A stretch of 64,000 nucleotides of DNA from Escherichia phage MN01: the sequence record MT129652.1. The stretch is one strand, 5' to 3'. This document shows positions 55,624 to 59,336 of this stretch, piece by piece (position 1 is the first letter of the stretch; the number at the start of each line of letters is the position of its first letter). Position numbers and translations under genes: made by a program. The notes below the pieces were generated by a model, which saw nothing but the letters and a program-made list of their open reading frames with translations, did no database searches and had not been told where the DNA came from.

Positions 55624-55896
55624 ATGAAAACTTTCAATGAATTTTTCAACGAGTCACAACTGAATGAAGAAGTAAAAATTAGTAAAGCAGTCAAAGCTAT
55701 GATTGACAATATCAATCACCTGTATAGCATTGACTTAACTGACCATATAACAATTGGTAACAAACGCAACTTTTTCGCGTTTGACATTTCAGAACTTGAC
55801 CAGAACCAAATTAATAACATTGAGCGTTTTGCCAATGACAAGGGTCTTCGCCATGAGACGGCTGGTTATAAAAAATATGCAATTTATCTAAAATAG
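55624..55896 (+). CDS. internal-protein-like, capsid-targeting-sequence-bearing protein 2
   Basis: N-terminus MKTFNEFFNE|S. Confidence 0.65.
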   Translation: MKTFNEFFNESQLNEEVKISKAVKAMIDNINHLYSIDLTDHITIGNKRNFFAFDISELDQNQINNIERFANDKGLRHETAGYKKYAIYLK

Positions 55897-55904
55897 GATT
55901 TCAA

Positions 55905-56147
55905 ATGAAAACTTATCAAACATTTATAACAGAATCTTCCCATGGCATGGAAGTTAAACTTGGTCAAGCCCTTGCTGAAGCAGAGCGCCTGTTTGCACGT
56001 ATCAAAGAACTTGCTGATTCAGTAGATGCATCATCTTTTAAAGGCGACCAGGGTAAAGTTAAAGCTCTCCTCGCTCTTTGTTCAGACGCCGGTGAAATTG
56101 CTAAGAACGGCACCAAGATGAAAAAACGTCTGGAAGACTTAAAATAA
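55905..56147 (+). CDS. internal-protein-like, capsid-targeting-sequence-bearing protein 3
   Basis: N-terminus MKTYQTFITE|S. Confidence 0.65.
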   Translation: MKTYQTFITESSHGMEVKLGQALAEAERLFARIKELADSVDASSFKGDQGKVKALLALCSDAGEIAKNGTKMKKRLEDLK

Positions 56148-56148
56148 A

Positions 56149-56184
56149 GTATACGCGATGGGATAACTGCAGTATAATTATCCC
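56149..56184 (+). promoter_or_regulatory. early promoter with stem-loop (PeSL-like)
   Basis: GTATAC -35, 18 nt spacer, TATAAT at 56173-56178 inside GGGATAA...TTATCCC inverted repeat; leader TCAACTACTGGAGG. Confidence 0.6.
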
Positions 56185-56203
56185 ATCAACTACTGGAGGC
56201 AAC

Positions 56204-56458
56204 ATGAAAACATATCAAGAATTTATTAACGAAGCCGCAGATGCAAAAGTTGAGTTTGCTTATGTTGGTTCCCCGCGGGGTAGTTTTTCTAATGAGGAAT
56301 TGCGCCGTTCACTAGACAACTTTATGCAGTTAAGTGCTGAAGTATCGCATGATGGTCGCTATGACATCGTTACCATTAAAGGTTCTGAAGACCTTATCAA
56401 AAAGTGGCACAAGCAGAAAGATGTTGAGATGCGTTACTATCGTATCCCTAAAAAATAA
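56204..56458 (+). CDS. internal-protein-like, capsid-targeting-sequence-bearing protein 4
   Basis: N-terminus MKTYQEFINE|A, almost identical to the T4 IPIII targeting sequence MKTYQEFIAE as recalled. Confidence 0.7.
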   Translation: MKTYQEFINEAADAKVEFAYVGSPRGSFSNEELRRSLDNFMQLSAEVSHDGRYDIVTIKGSEDLIKKWHKQKDVEMRYYRIPKK

Positions 56459-56493
56459 GTGTACTTTTAAATGGGATAGTGTATAATTATCCC
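56459..56493 (+). promoter_or_regulatory. early promoter with stem-loop (PeSL-like)
   Basis: GTGTAC -35, 17 nt spacer, TATAAT at 56482-56487 inside GGGATAG...TTATCCC; near-duplicate of the cassette at 56149. Confidence 0.6.
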
Positions 56494-56515
56494 GTCAACT
56501 ACTGAGGGTCAAAAA

Positions 56516-56737
56516 ATGAAAACGTATCAAGAATTTATTAACGAAGCTAAAATGCATGACGAATTGCCGATTCAATCTAAAACTTTTGATGGTACACTGA
56601 AGGATTTTAAAAAGTTACCAAATGATAAATTGGCAAAACTTACAGGTTCTGTATCTGAAACAGGTGGTAAGGTTACTTTCTCTGCCCGTGGTATTGTCAA
56701 CCTTAAAAAACTTTTGAAAGCCGTTGGTGCTGAATAA
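56516..56737 (+). CDS. internal-protein-like, capsid-targeting-sequence-bearing protein 5
   Basis: N-terminus MKTYQEFINE|A. Confidence 0.7.
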   Translation: MKTYQEFINEAKMHDELPIQSKTFDGTLKDFKKLPNDKLAKLTGSVSETGGKVTFSARGIVNLKKLLKAVGAE

Positions 56738-57965: not shown

Positions 57966-58235
57966 ATGTTAGTATTAAAATTAGCTTTTTACGACCCTAA
58001 AACAAAGACAACCACTACCAAACGTTGCTCTATCTCGTATGAGTGCCAATTTGGCGAAATTCAGCATCCAACGGGCGAAACCTTTATGTCAATTGGTTGT
58101 CCAACATTCAATAAAGTCAAATTAATCCCGTTGGTTAATACGGCGGCTTATCTGGTTGCACCAGAAGAAATGACTTATCATACAATTCAGCATATGGTTA
58201 AAGATGATAATGCTCCCGCTGGATTTGTAATTTAA
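57966..58235 (+). CDS. hypothetical Cys-containing small protein
   Basis: 89 aa ORF; GAGG RBS; ends 5 nt before the tRNA. Confidence 0.45.
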   Translation: MLVLKLAFYDPKTKTTTTKRCSISYECQFGEIQHPTGETFMSIGCPTFNKVKLIPLVNTAAYLVAPEEMTYHTIQHMVKDDNAPAGFVI

Positions 58236-58240
58236 TTTTA

Positions 58241-58316
58241 GGCCCTGTAGCTCAATTGGTTAGAGCATCCGGCTCATAACTGGCAGGTTTCCGGTTCAAG
58301 TCCGGATGGGGCCACC
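58241..58316 (+). tRNA. tRNA with CAU anticodon (Ile-lysidine type or Met)
   Basis: Cloverleaf by eye: acceptor GGCCCTG/TGGGGCC, D-arm GCTC-AATTGGTTA-GAGC, T-arm TCCGG-TTCAAGT-CCGGA, anticodon loop CTCATAA; anticodon stem imperfect. Confidence 0.6.
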
Positions 58317-58393
58317 CGGGGTGTAGCTCAATTGTATAGAGCAACGGTCTTCTAAACCGTAGGTTGTGGGTTAGAATCCCACCACCCCGACCA
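58317..58393 (+). tRNA. tRNA-Arg (UCU)
   Basis: Cloverleaf by eye: acceptor CGGGGTG/CACCCCG, anticodon arm ACGGT-CTTCTAA-ACCGT, T-arm GTGGG-TTAGAAT-CCCAC, encoded CCA. Confidence 0.8.
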
Positions 58394-58408
58394 ATTATTG
58401 AGGATATT

Positions 58409-58648
58409 ATGGTTATTAGTGAATCATATGCAGTTATGGATATAACCAATAACGAGCTGGTTTATAGCTTTGATGAGTTTGATGAAAATGATAAACAAGT
58501 TCCATGGTTTGCATTAACTGCTCCACCTGAGCATAATAAATATCTAAGTTTCCCGACTCGCAGATTAGCAACAAATTTTATGGAATTCAATGACCTTGAT
58601 TCCAATTATAAGGTTGTTAAAGTCAAATTAGCTATTACAATTGAATGA
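58409..58648 (+). CDS. hypothetical small acidic protein
   Basis: 79 aa ORF from ATG at 58409. Confidence 0.4.
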   Translation: MVISESYAVMDITNNELVYSFDEFDENDKQVPWFALTAPPEHNKYLSFPTRRLATNFMEFNDLDSNYKVVKVKLAITIE

Positions 58649-58649
58649 G

Positions 58650-58845
58650 AAACCGGGTCGCTACCGGTAAGTCGTCGGACTGAAGTTCCCTGTTTAAGGA
58701 CTGGCATCAATAAATCTTTACGATTTGTTGATGCCCCCTTATATCACAGCTGAAACGGCGCACCCTTTTACGGAGTTTTTCCAGAGCGGGCGGTGCGCCC
58801 GGTAGTATGAGAAATCCGAGCGGATGGTGCATCCGGTACTATGGA
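58650..58845 (+). ncRNA. candidate small stable RNA(s) downstream of the tRNAs (compare T4 rnaC/rnaD)
   Basis: About 200 nt without convincing ORF, several GC-rich hairpins (GGCATCAA/TTGATGCC, GGCGCACC/GGTGCGCC, CCGGATGGTGCATCCGG), directly after the tRNA genes. Confidence 0.35.
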
Positions 58846-58846
58846 A

Positions 58847-58854
58847 TATAAATA
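58847..58854 (+). promoter_or_regulatory. late promoter TATAAATA
   Basis: Exact TATAAATA about 18 nt upstream of ATG at 58873. Confidence 0.55.
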
Positions 58855-58872
58855 TTAACAACAACCCTAATA

Positions 58873-59268
58873 ATGGAAAACAAAATGCTTACATATGCAG
58901 AATTTTTAAATCGCAATACCATCACCGAATCCGTACTGACTGAAGCTGGTAAATTTTCTTTAGTGGCTCCAGAAAAAGCCGGTGTTTCAATTGGTGACCG
59001 TGTTATGTTCAAGAAACCAGTTAATGGAGTTTCTTGGGGTATCGTAACTGGGTTTGGCATCAAAGCTAAAGACGTTAAAAATGCCGCGGCACCTGGTGCT
59101 AAACTAGCTGGTTCCAAAGTTTCAACTTATATGGTTCGCCCTAAACAGTCTCCGGGTAATGGTGCTGCTGACTGGGTTGGCGCTCCAATCGAAATCGCTC
59201 GTGATAAATTCTTGAACATCACTGACCGTGCCAACGAACGCGCTGCAATGGCGTTCGCTCGCGGATAA
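58873..59268 (+). CDS. candidate internal (head) protein with divergent targeting-like N-terminus
   Basis: Late promoter; N-terminus MENKMLTYAEFLNRNTITE|S contains an I-x-E site; alternative start at 58885. Confidence 0.45.
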   Translation: MENKMLTYAEFLNRNTITESVLTEAGKFSLVAPEKAGVSIGDRVMFKKPVNGVSWGIVTGFGIKAKDVKNAAAPGAKLAGSKVSTYMVRPKQSPGNGAADWVGAPIEIARDKFLNITDRANERAAMAFARG

Positions 59269-59305
59269 GAACACTTGCCTTGCAGGTGGAACCCCGACAA
59301 GGTAT

Positions 59306-59336
59306 AGCCCCTTCCGAAAGGTTGGGGCTTTTTTTA
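59306..59336 (+). terminator. rho-independent terminator
   Basis: AGCCCC...GGGGCT hairpin followed by TTTTTTT. Confidence 0.7.

Follow-up and report, generated by a model that had tools for sequence, protein, structure and literature searches.

A non-coding stretch behind the tRNA genes of Escherichia phage MN01 probably joins an rnaD ortholog to the upstream part of a late-gene cassette

The structured non-coding interval that follows the tRNA genes of Escherichia phage MN01 is very probably composed of two elements joined end to end, namely an ortholog of rnaD, which specifies the T4 species 2 small stable RNA, and the upstream part of a late-gene cassette. The analyses were carried out on a window of 64,000 nucleotides (the whole stretch of DNA analyzed, sequence record MT129652.1), and the features of the region are compiled in Table 1. 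In the initial annotation, positions 58650-58845 had been described as about 200 nt without a convincing open reading frame, containing at least three GC-rich hairpins and located after tRNA-Arg and a small ORF. These descriptions were borne out, as only short, unconserved ORFs of at most 41 aa are present within 58649-58884, the hairpins H1, R1 and R2 are GC-rich and accompanied by a 14-bp AU-rich stem, and both tRNA-Arg and a 79-aa ORF precede the interval. The natural boundaries of the two elements are near those given initially. The further proposal of a homolog or analog of the T4 RNAs rnaC and rnaD was right for the 5' 120 nt, which represent a full-length rnaD ortholog and a stronger case than had been proposed, but failed for the 3' 80 nt, which comprise two GC-rich hairpins and show no similarity to rnaC.

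Folding of the whole stretch (215 nt, + strand) yielded a minimum free energy (MFE) of -74.2 kcal/mol (z = -3.43), with 0/200 shuffles performing as well, and a weaker signal was obtained for the minus strand (z = -2.87). Most of the signal is contributed by the first 120 nt (z = -3.76), the energy of the last 81 nt alone, termed segment B, not being significant (z = -1.70; 10/200 shuffles). Screening of known RNA families, as recommended in the initial annotation, retrieved only the two tRNAs from Rfam at gathering and permissive thresholds and nothing credible within 58650-58845; since Rfam contains no family for rnaD or segment B, such a check would find nothing. Moreover, positions 58645-58846 had no blastn match in 5,426 E. 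coli genomes or PLSDB, which were searched for host or plasmid homologs and antisense targets.

Table 1. Features of the region between the tRNA cluster and the tRNA-operon terminator of phage MN01.
Feature	Position	Strand	Detection or remark
tRNA(CAU)	58241-58316	+	ARAGORN; Rfam tRNA (62 and 74 bits for the two tRNAs)
tRNA-Arg (UCU), last of the cluster	58317-58393	+	ARAGORN; Rfam tRNA, 73.7 bits
79-aa ORF between tRNA-Arg and rnaD	58409-58648	+	phrog_33509, E 4.5e-57
rnaD ortholog (T4 species 2 small stable RNA), ~120 nt	58645-58764	+	BLAST, nhmmer, covariance model
H1, ACCGG/CCGGU, 7-nt loop GUCGCUA	58652-58668 (arms 58652-58656/58664-58668)	+	RNAalifold
P1 5' strand, GUCGUCG	58671-58677	+	RNAalifold, MFE; partner 58756-58763 (CGGCG-C-AC)
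P2 5' strand, UGAAGUU	58681-58687	+	Partner 58748-58754 (AGCUGAA)
P3, central hairpin, allele 'a', UAAGG...CCUUA	58695-58741	+	Encloses the 14-bp stem
14-bp AU-rich stem inside P3	58703-58716/58722-58735	+	
P1 3' strand, CGGCGCAC	58756-58763	+	
Cassette, 504 bp (structured spacer B, late promoter, 127-aa gene)	58765-59268	+	
Segment B, structured spacer at cassette start	58765-58846	+	
U-rich stretch AGUUUUUCCA, candidate anti-Shine-Dalgarno (anti-SD)	58774-58783	+	Overlaps the conserved GGAG (58772-58775)
Repeat unit R1	58784-58809	+	Hairpin CGGGCG-GUG-CGCCCG at 58787-58801
R1 hairpin arms	58787-58792/58796-58801	+	6 bp, GUG loop
Repeat unit R2	58818-58843	+	Hairpin CGGAUG-GUG-CAUCCG at 58821-58835
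R2 hairpin arms	58821-58826/58830-58835	+	6 bp, GUG loop
T4-type late promoter TATAAATA	58847-58854	+	Motif scan
Translation initiation region: UGGAAAAC (SD-like GGA), spacer, AUG at 58885	58874-58887	+	
ORF127, orphan 127-aa late gene	58885-59268	+	
Ultraconserved hairpin and tRNA-operon intrinsic terminator	59276-59304 and 59306-59336	+	Fold z = -3.22

Identity, boundaries and fold of the rnaD copy

T4 rnaD (T4s002, NC_000866 71053-71171) aligns end to end with the MN01 copy, showing about 88% identity over the full length (nhmmer E 1.6e-22, positions 1-119), and BLAST searches with rnaD matched 732 phage records, with 93% identity to the ncRNA annotated as 'rnaD, species II RNA' in phage RB3. 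A further 172 hits belong to Karamvirus and Jiaodavirus. Furthermore, a covariance model (model R1) based on 15 homologs, none of them from the clade of MN01, produced a single match within the 64 kb, reaching 139.2 bits (E 1.6e-32) over model positions 1-122 with all 17 pairs formed. The rnaD copy belongs to a VR20-like Gaprivervirus. Irrespective of the flanking sequences, the conserved block begins and ends at the ends of the T4 RNA, and both the block and the annotated 3' end of T4 finish at 58764. The copy closes the tRNA cluster on its 3' side and precedes a conserved hairpin and the operon terminator.

T4 and MN01 thus have the 5' and 3' boundaries, the position in the tRNA cluster and the predicted fold (H1, P1, P2 and P3) in common, the central hairpin of MN01 representing the same allele as in T4 and RB3. 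According to the annotations and, for TH40, an alignment, rnaD directly follows tRNA-Arg in T4, RB3 and TH40. In MN01, by contrast, the 79-aa ORF, whose TGA stop (58646-58648) falls inside the rnaD 5' end, separates it from tRNA-Arg, and the gene cassette takes the place of rnaC on the 3' side. TH40 lacks the 79-aa ORF in the alignment, yet retains rnaD and the cassette. Judged from the sequences, the 79-aa ORF and the cassette are insertions around rnaD. The RNA ends with the CCA-like CACCA in T4 and with CACCC in MN01; a tRNA-like 3' end of rnaD was considered and rejected, as the CCA of T4 is not conserved and other copies have CACCC, CACCG or CACAG.

The tRNAs and the species I and II RNAs of T4 are all derived from one middle transcript of about 1.75 kb, which terminates after the species I gene (PMC2330249). 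Infected cells were found to contain both RNAC and RNAD, of which the former was confirmed by Northern blot (PMC9697503). No function is assigned to rnaC or rnaD in the literature found, including, for rnaD, PMC3014915, PMC9697503 and PMC12685909. By analogy to T4, MN01 rnaD would be transcribed within a tRNA-operon precursor ending at the terminator at 59306-59336, from which host RNases would then excise it, and the stable product of about 120 nt would accumulate; its presumed ends, stability and processing are modeled on the T4 RNA.

The RNAalifold consensus is identical to the MFE fold of the MN01 copy (z = -3.76) and consists of the 5' hairpin H1 followed by a rod, which is closed by the long-range helix P1 and comprises, in this order, P1, a purine-rich internal loop, P2 with tandem G.A, an invariant UCCCUG and an exchangeable terminal hairpin. 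Among 25 sequences including Karamvirus and Jiaodavirus, 97.8% of the cells were paired and 8 of the 17 pairs were changed on both sides; the covariation score was equalled in 0/500 shuffles, and slid controls paired in at most 40%. Double-sided changes affect three of the five H1 pairs across genera, with every cell paired, three of the four pairs of the P2 core, and three pairs of P3 within allele a; in other phages, the P3 site is occupied by two unrelated alleles. P2 contains tandem G.A / A.G between Watson-Crick pairs. Among 22 sequences, its pair 58684:58751 is A:U in nine and U:A in ten, the remaining three having a mismatch, and distant homologs have the helix rewritten as UUUAAU/AUUAAA or AGAAUU/AAUUUCU. 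A canonical kink-turn at the tandem G.A was rejected by sequence reasoning only, given Watson-Crick pairs on both sides and a 3-nt bulge one pair away.

The P1 core CGUCG/CGGCG is invariant in the 25 sequences from several genera, and P1 shows no covariation because it never varies. Support for this predicted helix is indirect and comes from the MFE and from the loss of a competing hairpin in divergent copies. The local hairpin H2 (AGUC-GUCG-GACU) pairs in T4-like copies, but was rejected as a part of rnaD; P1 was preferred, since H2 is destroyed and P1 persists in the copies of UPEC01, Karamvirus and Jiaodavirus. As P1 and UCCCUG stay invariant beside the freely covarying H1, P2 and P3, they may form a sequence-specific platform, with a protein as the most likely partner and the rest of the RNA as scaffold, a reading that deserves serious attention although we would lean slightly against it.

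The cassette in the slot of rnaC

No rnaC was detected anywhere in the 64-kb window by nhmmer (E up to 10), blastn returned just chance words of 11-12 nt across the window, and in the T4 alignment the columns from 130 onward are unrelated. The tRNA-like T-arm GGGTTCGAATCCC, which is located near the 3' end of T4 rnaC, is missing from 58765-58846, and neither ARAGORN nor the Rfam tRNA model reported anything in this segment. rnaC is likewise absent from several other T4-like phages, and the insertion point of the cassette corresponds to the junction between rnaD and GAACACTTGCC in rnaC-less phages, the junction being identical. Because the insertion lies exactly at the join of rnaD and the terminator block, the cassette fills the rnaC slot without kinship to rnaC. 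This block (59276-59336) is homologous to the block after rnaC in T4, and its terminator stem covaries when T4 and rnaC-less phages are aligned. Compared to T4 rnaC (species 1, T4s001), segment B occupies the same map slot between rnaD and the terminator block and is also structured and non-coding. However, it measures about 81 nt as opposed to 139 nt, shares no sequence similarity with rnaC and, unlike the latter, is tied to a protein gene and a late promoter and lacks a tRNA-like T-arm or acceptor-like end.

No more than 15 of 50,697 phage records contained the cassette, at a single place in each of the 15 genomes. Its gene, ORF127, is confined to the same 15 phages and represents one protein cluster among 5.8 billion; it has no Pfam or PHROG match, and its homologs, consulted as a clue to the donor of segment B, comprised its own cluster only. 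Nearly all variable sites of the gene (36 of 37) are third codon positions. A 1-nt indel in six of seven phages breaks the frame from the ATG at 58873, and the start is therefore placed at 58885. At its N-terminus, the protein carries MLTYAEFLNRNTITESVLTEA, which is reminiscent of the capsid-targeting leader found in internal head proteins of the T4 type, and this likeness extends to neighbouring MKTYQEFI.E genes and to MKTYNEFLNESVLTEAS in L032. The late-promoter motif has 20 matches in the window versus 5.3 expected, promoter and leader (58847-58884) are invariant in seven phages, and the leader of the late transcript is unstructured (z = +1.25). That the region might turn out to be only the 5' UTR of the late gene, as the initial annotation had considered, does not apply to segment B, which lies upstream of the late promoter. 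Since the promoter is located 3' of it, segment B is expected only in read-through (pre-late) transcripts and could act as a leader only there.

Possible roles of the structured spacer

In segment B, 8 of 82 columns are variable, whereas the adjacent ORF varies at 36 of 128 third codon positions (Fisher p = 0.0016). The segment is hence about three times less variable than these positions, and its low variability could in part be due to a recent sweep of the cassette. R1 and R2 constitute a tandem repeat with a period of 34 nt, matched by 0/100 shuffles. Within R1, the pair 58790:58798 is changed from G:C to A:U in TH44, TH54 and M719 (compensatory), R2 shows a change from A:U to G:U in TH44 and TH40, and R1 and R2 differ from each other by two fully compensated pairs. 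Based on purifying selection and the compensated tandem hairpins, the most probable mode of action of segment B is that of a cis-acting RNA on the read-through transcript, as far as can be judged from sequence comparison. In the window, B hairpins occur as the two adjacent units only, with no further copies. In IMG/VR, a degenerate hairpin pattern matched unrelated coding repeats, and none of at least 120 metagenomic loci, among the matches listed for a double-hairpin pattern, fits the window, this pattern being poorly chosen and flooded by GGT-GCN-NCC-GGT collagen-like repeats.

As a leading guess, which is tentative, AGUUUUUCCA would pair with the Shine-Dalgarno region UGGAAAAAC of ORF127 and silence this gene on the tRNA precursor. 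The U-rich stretch is complementary to positions 58874-58882, and the late promoter separates the two arms, so that the inhibitory helix would be possible in read-through RNA only. Translation of ORF127 would be restricted to the shorter late transcript, the 90-nt loop between the arms being compacted by the two hairpins. Nine Watson-Crick pairs can be formed in six of seven phages (18/5000 shuffles), and in the MN01 allele one A is lost, leaving a run of 7 bp (446/5000 shuffles). In the RNAalifold consensus of the seven phages, as in the MFE structure of the majority allele, the fold is closed by this helix; for MN01, the corresponding structure lies 0.9 kcal/mol above the MFE. Predicted pairing probabilities are 0.76-0.87 for VR20, TH40 and UPEC01, at most 0.19 for MN01, TH44, TH54 and M719, and at most 0.08 in all seven phages with rnaD attached. 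Even for the late RNA, the predicted unpaired fraction of the Shine-Dalgarno sequence amounts to only about one half. Both arms of the candidate helix are invariant and hence show no covariation.

The same logic of occluding the initiation region has precedents in the T4 genes e, soc, 49 and I-TevI (PMC3014915, PMC2330249), and occlusion of this type was also proposed for segB, inside the tRNA precursor. The arrangement in MN01 has in common with the T4 cases that the late promoter lies between the arms and that the gene resides within a unit active before late times. In contrast to T4, the arms in MN01 are about 100 nt apart and enclose two extra hairpins, and the candidate helix is predicted to be A/U-rich, marginally stable and weakened by the 1-nt deletion. 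Another inverted repeat (58600-58618 / 58860-878), tried as an RBS-hiding element, was treated as chance, since its arm at 58600-58618 lies inside the 79-aa ORF and is missing in TH40. About as likely as the pairing of AGUUUUUCCA with the Shine-Dalgarno region is a role of the B hairpins as processing or stability elements. In this alternative, the hairpins would provide rnaD with the structured 3' flank otherwise formed by rnaC, and would also serve as a cap for the downstream message.

Further explanations of the region are less probable. Segment B exactly occupies the rnaC slot of T4 and RB3, is under purifying selection with compensatory changes in both hairpins, and possesses U/A-rich single-stranded flanks (58765-58783 and 58844-58872) as possible endonuclease sites, all of which would suit a small stable RNA of about 80 nt serving as a non-homologous functional stand-in for rnaC. 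Such an RNA is nevertheless unlikely, considering that segment B has no rnaC similarity and no Rfam match, that its folding energy is unexceptional (z = -1.70), and that it always accompanies ORF127, which suits a leader better than an independent gene. Moreover, the species 1 RNA is processed by an RNase P route known from the literature of the 1970s, and this route is closed to segment B, since it lacks the T-arm. Even less credence is given to a single composite RNA of about 190 nt consisting of rnaD and segment B, in which the repeats would mask the rnaD 5' hairpin region and 3' tail. The MFE structure of the 215 nt pairs 58652-58668 with 58819-58837 and 58757-58764 with 58792-58799, all 24 pairs are standard in seven phages, including three one-sided changes to G:U, and the fold is about 5 kcal/mol better than the two local folds summed. 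However, this complementarity is within chance (129/500 shuffles for the 5' arm, 23/500 for the 3' arm and 47/500 for the sum), no pair is changed on both sides, and the G -> A change at 58790 is compensated in the local R1 hairpin only. The local rnaD fold, on the other hand, covaries in about 20 phages without segment B and would presumably form first during transcription.

A function of the B hairpins as terminators or attenuators, halting early or middle transcription before the late gene, would be biologically sensible as a shield of this gene from upstream transcription, and the two GC-rich hairpins are indeed located just 5' of the late promoter. It is, however, highly improbable, and slightly less likely than the composite RNA: R1 and R2 are followed by GUAGUAUGAG and GUACUAUGGAAU instead of a U-tract, a terminator scan of the + strand from 58400 to 59300 was empty and reported neither hairpin, and the T4-homologous operon terminator lies further downstream. 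Finally, ORFs of 26-41 aa exist on both strands, and a CDS has been annotated in M719 (WMU95760.1, minus strand) and in UPEC01 (QQG31067.1). That the interval encodes a small protein can practically be dismissed, since nearly identical phages carry unrelated sequences in place of the central hairpin, an exchange that no reading frame survives; furthermore, substitutions track base-pairing and not codon position, and the T4 and RB3 homologs are annotated as stable RNAs.

The cassette was also compared to the mobile PeSL and PmSL promoter-stem-loop cassettes of T4-type phages (PMC2839356, PMC4122927). In both cases, stem-loops immediately precede a promoter and border a small orphan gene, which varies between close relatives in a hyperplastic region. 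Unlike in these cassettes, the promoter is of the late type TATAAATA and not of the sigma-70 or Mot type, no sigma-70-like site being present on the + strand within 58650-58860, and the stem-loops of segment B form a tandem pair with GUG triloops. Whereas PeSL elements exist in many dispersed copies mediating shuffling, segment B is single-copy in the window and in the 15 genomes. Not far from the cassette, typical PeSL-like hairpins that include TATAAT were observed at 56156-56188 and 56473-56493.

Significance for T4-like phages

The boundaries of rnaD remain exact despite the loss of rnaC, the insertion of ORFs on either side and the replacement of the central hairpin, and in T4-like phages of Klebsiella and Enterobacter, diverged rnaD copies adjoin tRNA genes. 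P1 (CGUCG/CGGCG) and UCCCUG are constant in every copy compared, and the other helices covary. The finding is real and largely ordinary, and it will not surprise a T4 specialist. Its main value consists in better annotation, as the rnaD copies of the clade (VR20, TH55, UPEC07 and relatives) are unannotated or hidden under spurious hypothetical CDSs. Furthermore, the cassette with its structured spacer provides a small example of a late gene placed inside a pre-late tRNA operon. If segment B were a lineage-specific stable RNA after all, released from the tRNA-operon precursor, it would have replaced rnaC in its position and possibly also in its role as partner of rnaD, and rnaD/rnaC would represent a replaceable two-RNA module and not two fixed genes. 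The comparison bears on the 50-year-old question of what the species 1 and 2 RNAs of T4 do, and its outcome is a concrete, testable structural model that marks nucleotides to be mutated or used as bait.

Organization and folding of the region downstream of the tRNA genes

The window originates from a T4-like myovirus, and its best matches over 58200-59300 were Escherichia phages TH55, UPEC07, DK-13 and vB_EcoM_VR20 of the genus Gaprivervirus (96-98.5% identity). The initial annotation had described the stretch following tRNA-Arg and a small ORF (ORF79, 79 aa) as highly structured, and this observation was confirmed: the 215-nt plus strand folded at -74.2 kcal/mol (z = -3.43; 0/200 shuffles equally stable), the minus strand folded less strongly (z = -2.87), and the GC-rich hairpins H1, R1 and R2 are all present. 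Taken by themselves, 58645-58765 reached z = -3.76 and 58766-58846 z = -1.70 (10/200 shuffles equally stable).

Features of the locus and of homologous loci (window coordinates unless a locus is named)
Feature	Position	Description
tRNA(CAU)	58241-58316	ARAGORN and Rfam
tRNA-Arg(UCU)	58317-58393	ARAGORN and Rfam
ORF79	58409-58648	phrog_33509; non-coding stretch comes next
H1, 5' hairpin of rnaD	58652-58668	GC-rich; (A/G)CCGG-7 nt-CCGG(U/C); RNAalifold and MFE
P1, long-range helix of rnaD		GUCGUCG / CGGCG-C-AC; ends one base short of annotated 3' end
P2, long-range helix of rnaD		UGAAGUU / AGCUGAA; tandem G.A
P3, hairpin of rnaD	58693-58741	central, terminal hairpin
AU-rich stem	58703-58735	14 bp
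504-bp insert (cassette)	58765-59268	82-nt segment B; late promoter; 30-nt leader; 127-aa ORF, stop codon abutting GAACACTTGCC
U-rich linker of segment B	58765-58783	conserved GGAG
Tandem repeat of segment B	58784-58809, 58818-58843	34-nt period; 0/100 shuffles
R1	58787-58801	GC-rich hairpin
R2	58821-58835	GC-rich hairpin
Late promoter	58847-58854	T4 type, perfect: TATAAATA
ORF127, cassette gene	start 58885
Diverged rnaD-like elements	L254 2450-2551; L250 2583-2684; L252 2408-2510
Diverged rnaD-like elements, further loci	L307 410-512; L306 410-534; L304 410-511; L305 411-512

The tRNA(CAU) gene was called Met (CAT) by ARAGORN, and public records are split between trnI and tRNA-Met; it aligns with a T4 gene annotated as tRNA-Ile, also with a CAT anticodon, and is probably not tRNA-Met but a tRNA-Ile2 with a lysidine modification. 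ORF79 ends in a TGA stop codon (58646-58648) inside the first bases of rnaD (AUGAGAAACC, the same as in T4), so that excision of rnaD at the T4 position would leave the ORF79 message stopless. Furthermore, a sigma-70-like site, TTGTTA-16-TACAAT (9/12 matches), is located at 58614-58641 within the 3' end of ORF79, and its predicted start (~58648) corresponds to the rnaD 5' end. It could provide rnaD with its own promoter where ORF79 splits it off tRNA-Arg, or be a chance match, with 23 such sites found in the region versus 15 expected.

Identity, structure and distribution of rnaD

By blastn, 58640-58870 matched 732 phage records, nearly all of them only within bases 9-125 of the query. The matching segment of RB3 and RB10 carries the ncRNA annotation 'rnaD, species II RNA' (93% identity). 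In the T4 annotation, tRNA-Arg is directly followed by rnaD (species 2, 119 nt) and then rnaC (species 1, 139 nt), both classical genes without assigned function (PMC3014915, PMC9697503, PMC12685909). rnaD of T4 and RB3 aligns with the window from first to last base, with total divergence from the rnaC start onward. Using T4 rnaD as query, nhmmer recovered 58645-58764 (E 1.6e-22), and a covariance model derived from 15 homologs, all outside the window's clade, matched 58645-58766 over its full length with every pair formed (139.2 bits, E 1.6e-32) and detected no second copy in the window. T4 rnaC as nhmmer query yielded no match anywhere in the 64 kb. The proposed kinship with the T4 small RNAs was thus partly supported: judged from sequence homology, 58645-58764 is rnaD, whereas the rnaC half of the proposal did not stand. 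The suggested search against known RNA families was uninformative, as Rfam contains no family corresponding to rnaD. The conserved block keeps the same first and last bases next to every flank compared, which include tRNA-Arg, rnaC, the cassette, the terminator block and the ends of three different ORFs.

RNAalifold, run on 22 sequences, gave the same fold as the MFE structure of the window copy. Among the T4-like copies, pair six of H1 alternates between A:U and G:C, and one P2 pair is A:U in nine, U:A in ten and mismatched in three sequences. Across 25 sequences, 97.8% of cells were paired and 8 of 17 pairs showed double-sided change, in an alignment fitted to the covariance model, which favours the model; the covariation score was reached by 0/500 shuffles, and slid controls paired at most 40%. 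Support for P1 is indirect, since this helix is invariant in all copies compared, and P3 shows covariation within its own allele. A local hairpin competing with P1 (AGUC/GACU) was rejected, being broken in UPEC01 and in the Karamvirus and Jiaodavirus copies.

Comparison of the window with L042/L011/L016 and L014/L035/L049/L052/L053 revealed at least three unrelated alleles of the central hairpin between near-invariant arms. These are swapped among near-identical phages, the window carrying allele a, and TH44 and M719 allele c. Moreover, UPEC01 rnaD (L053 1392-1504) represents a natural compensatory variant: clustered changes (GGACUGA to GGGGCC, CAGCUGAAAC to CAUCAGGCAC) put C-G pairs in the place of the tandem G.A of P2 (GCCUG/CAGGC) and abolish the alternative local hairpin, and the model score is still 71 bits.

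The covariance model was also run on the sequences surrounding homologs of the DUF7338 gene that lies downstream. In Enterobacter and Klebsiella phages of the genera Karamvirus and Jiaodavirus, it gave weak yet full-length matches directly behind tRNA-Asn. H1 is replaced there by UCAG/CUGA and P2 by UUUAAU/AUUAAA or AGAAUU/AAUUUCU, both compensated, and AAGUCGUCGG, UCCCUG and ACGGCG are identical. These elements sit in large tRNA clusters (172 GenBank records), either without annotation or under overlapping hypothetical CDSs.

A late-gene cassette in place of rnaC

rnaC is missing in 5 of 16 IMG/VR T4-like loci with rnaD (L048, L032, L042, L011 and L035, versus L001, L002, L044 and others), and rnaD then runs straight into GAACACTTGCC, the deletion fusing GGCGCACC to GAACACTTGCC. 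Retention of rnaD therefore appears more consistent than that of rnaC. The GAACACTTGCC block is an ultraconserved hairpin, with the operon terminator behind it. The 33-nt CACTTGCC(T)TGCAGGTGGAACCCCGACAAGGT, forming the hairpin just 5' of the terminator (block 59276-59336, fold z = -3.2), is invariant in T4, the window and rnaC-less phages, and the terminator stem covaries (GCCCC/GGGGC vs GGCCC/GGGCC). The window junction equals the rnaC-less junction, split by the 504-bp insert; segment B (58765-58846) is the leader of this cassette, not rnaC.

Among 50,697 phage records, only 15 contain segment B, and ORF127 occurs in exactly the same 15, forming one cluster only in a 5.8-billion-protein collection. 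ORF127 is a real gene, because 36 of its 37 variable sites fall at third codon positions. Insertion of ORF79 and of the cassette was independent, since TH40 carries the cassette without ORF79. The N-terminus of ORF127, MLTYAEFLNRNTITESVLTEA, resembles the MKTYQEFI.E leaders of neighbouring internal-protein-like genes and also MKTYNEFLNESVLTEAS, placed just past the same terminator in another phage (L032). In T4, leaders of this type target proteins to the capsid and are cleaved by the prohead protease. A small-gene cluster at ~55624-56737 encodes N-termini resembling such leaders (MKTFNEFFNE, MKTYQTFITE and, twice, MKTYQEFINE), and ORF127 (58885-59268; MLTYAEFLNRNTITE) represents a displaced, divergent member of this group. 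TATAAT-containing hairpins directly upstream of two internal-protein-like genes (56156-56188, GATGGGATAACTGCAGTATAATTATCCCATC; 56473-56493, GGGATAGTGTATAATTATCCC) resemble the promoter-stem-loop (PeSL) cassettes known from T4-type phages.

Constraint and possible role of segment B

Each repeat unit of B contains a hairpin with a 6-bp stem and a GUG triloop; two pairs, both fully compensated, distinguish R1 from R2, and among related phages R1 changes G:C to A:U in three and R2 A:U to G:U in two. In seven phages, B is constrained, because 8/82 of its columns vary versus 36/128 adjacent third codon positions (Fisher p = 0.0016); promoter and leader vary at 0/38 columns. The compensatory pattern points to B acting as RNA. 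Lying upstream of the late start site, B can act only in read-through transcripts from upstream, and the flagged stretch is not simply the 5' UTR of the late gene, as had been considered. In T4, the tRNA cluster yields one middle transcript of ~1.75 kb ending past the species I gene (PMC2330249).

Hypothetical CDSs over rnaD and B in related-phage records (L052 1350-1604, minus strand; L053 1390-1542; L307 345-482) are very likely spurious, such small ORFs being incompatible with hairpin allele swaps and base-pair-driven substitutions. No similar sequence was found in E. coli genomes or plasmids. The whole-interval MFE pairs B with invariant rnaD arms, and these pairs are retained in 7/7 phages; this cross-pairing was rejected, with complementarity within chance (47/500 shuffles) and no double-sided change. 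The B hairpins were also rejected as terminators, lacking U-tracts.

One tentative role for B is occlusion of the ORF127 Shine-Dalgarno (SD) region in read-through RNA, AGUUUUUCCA (58774-58783) being complementary to UGGAAAAAC. Nine Watson-Crick pairs are available in 6/7 phages (18/5000 shuffles). In the RNAalifold consensus this helix is the closing one and encloses R1 and R2, and the majority allele has it in its MFE fold; the late leader by itself shows no structure. However, loss of one A shortens the run to 7 bp in the window allele (446/5000 shuffles), where the anti-SD fold lies 0.9 kcal/mol above the MFE, and the pairing probability, 0.76-0.87 in three phages, is at most 0.19 in four and at most 0.08 in all seven with rnaD attached. 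Anti-SD pairing would account for the need for a leader in a late gene sited before the operon terminator, and the related gene in L032, past the terminator, has no such leader. Published work describes the same logic for the T4 genes e, soc, 49 and I-TevI (PMC3014915), and segB within the tRNA precursor is a proposed further case (PMC2330249). Of similar, still doubtful weight is a function in processing or stability, in which the hairpins would take the place of rnaC as a structured 3' flank of rnaD, or would cap the 5' end of the downstream message. The remaining probability is shared by hitch-hiking of B, a role at the DNA level, and B as a small RNA in its own right.

The comparative by-products, namely an explicit covarying rnaD structure with invariant P1 and UCCCUG and swappable P3 alleles, frequent rnaC loss, and Karamvirus and Jiaodavirus homologs that lack annotation, are useful but incremental. 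New are one more rnaD member and a clade-specific swap of rnaC for a late-gene cassette whose leader is structured and under constraint.
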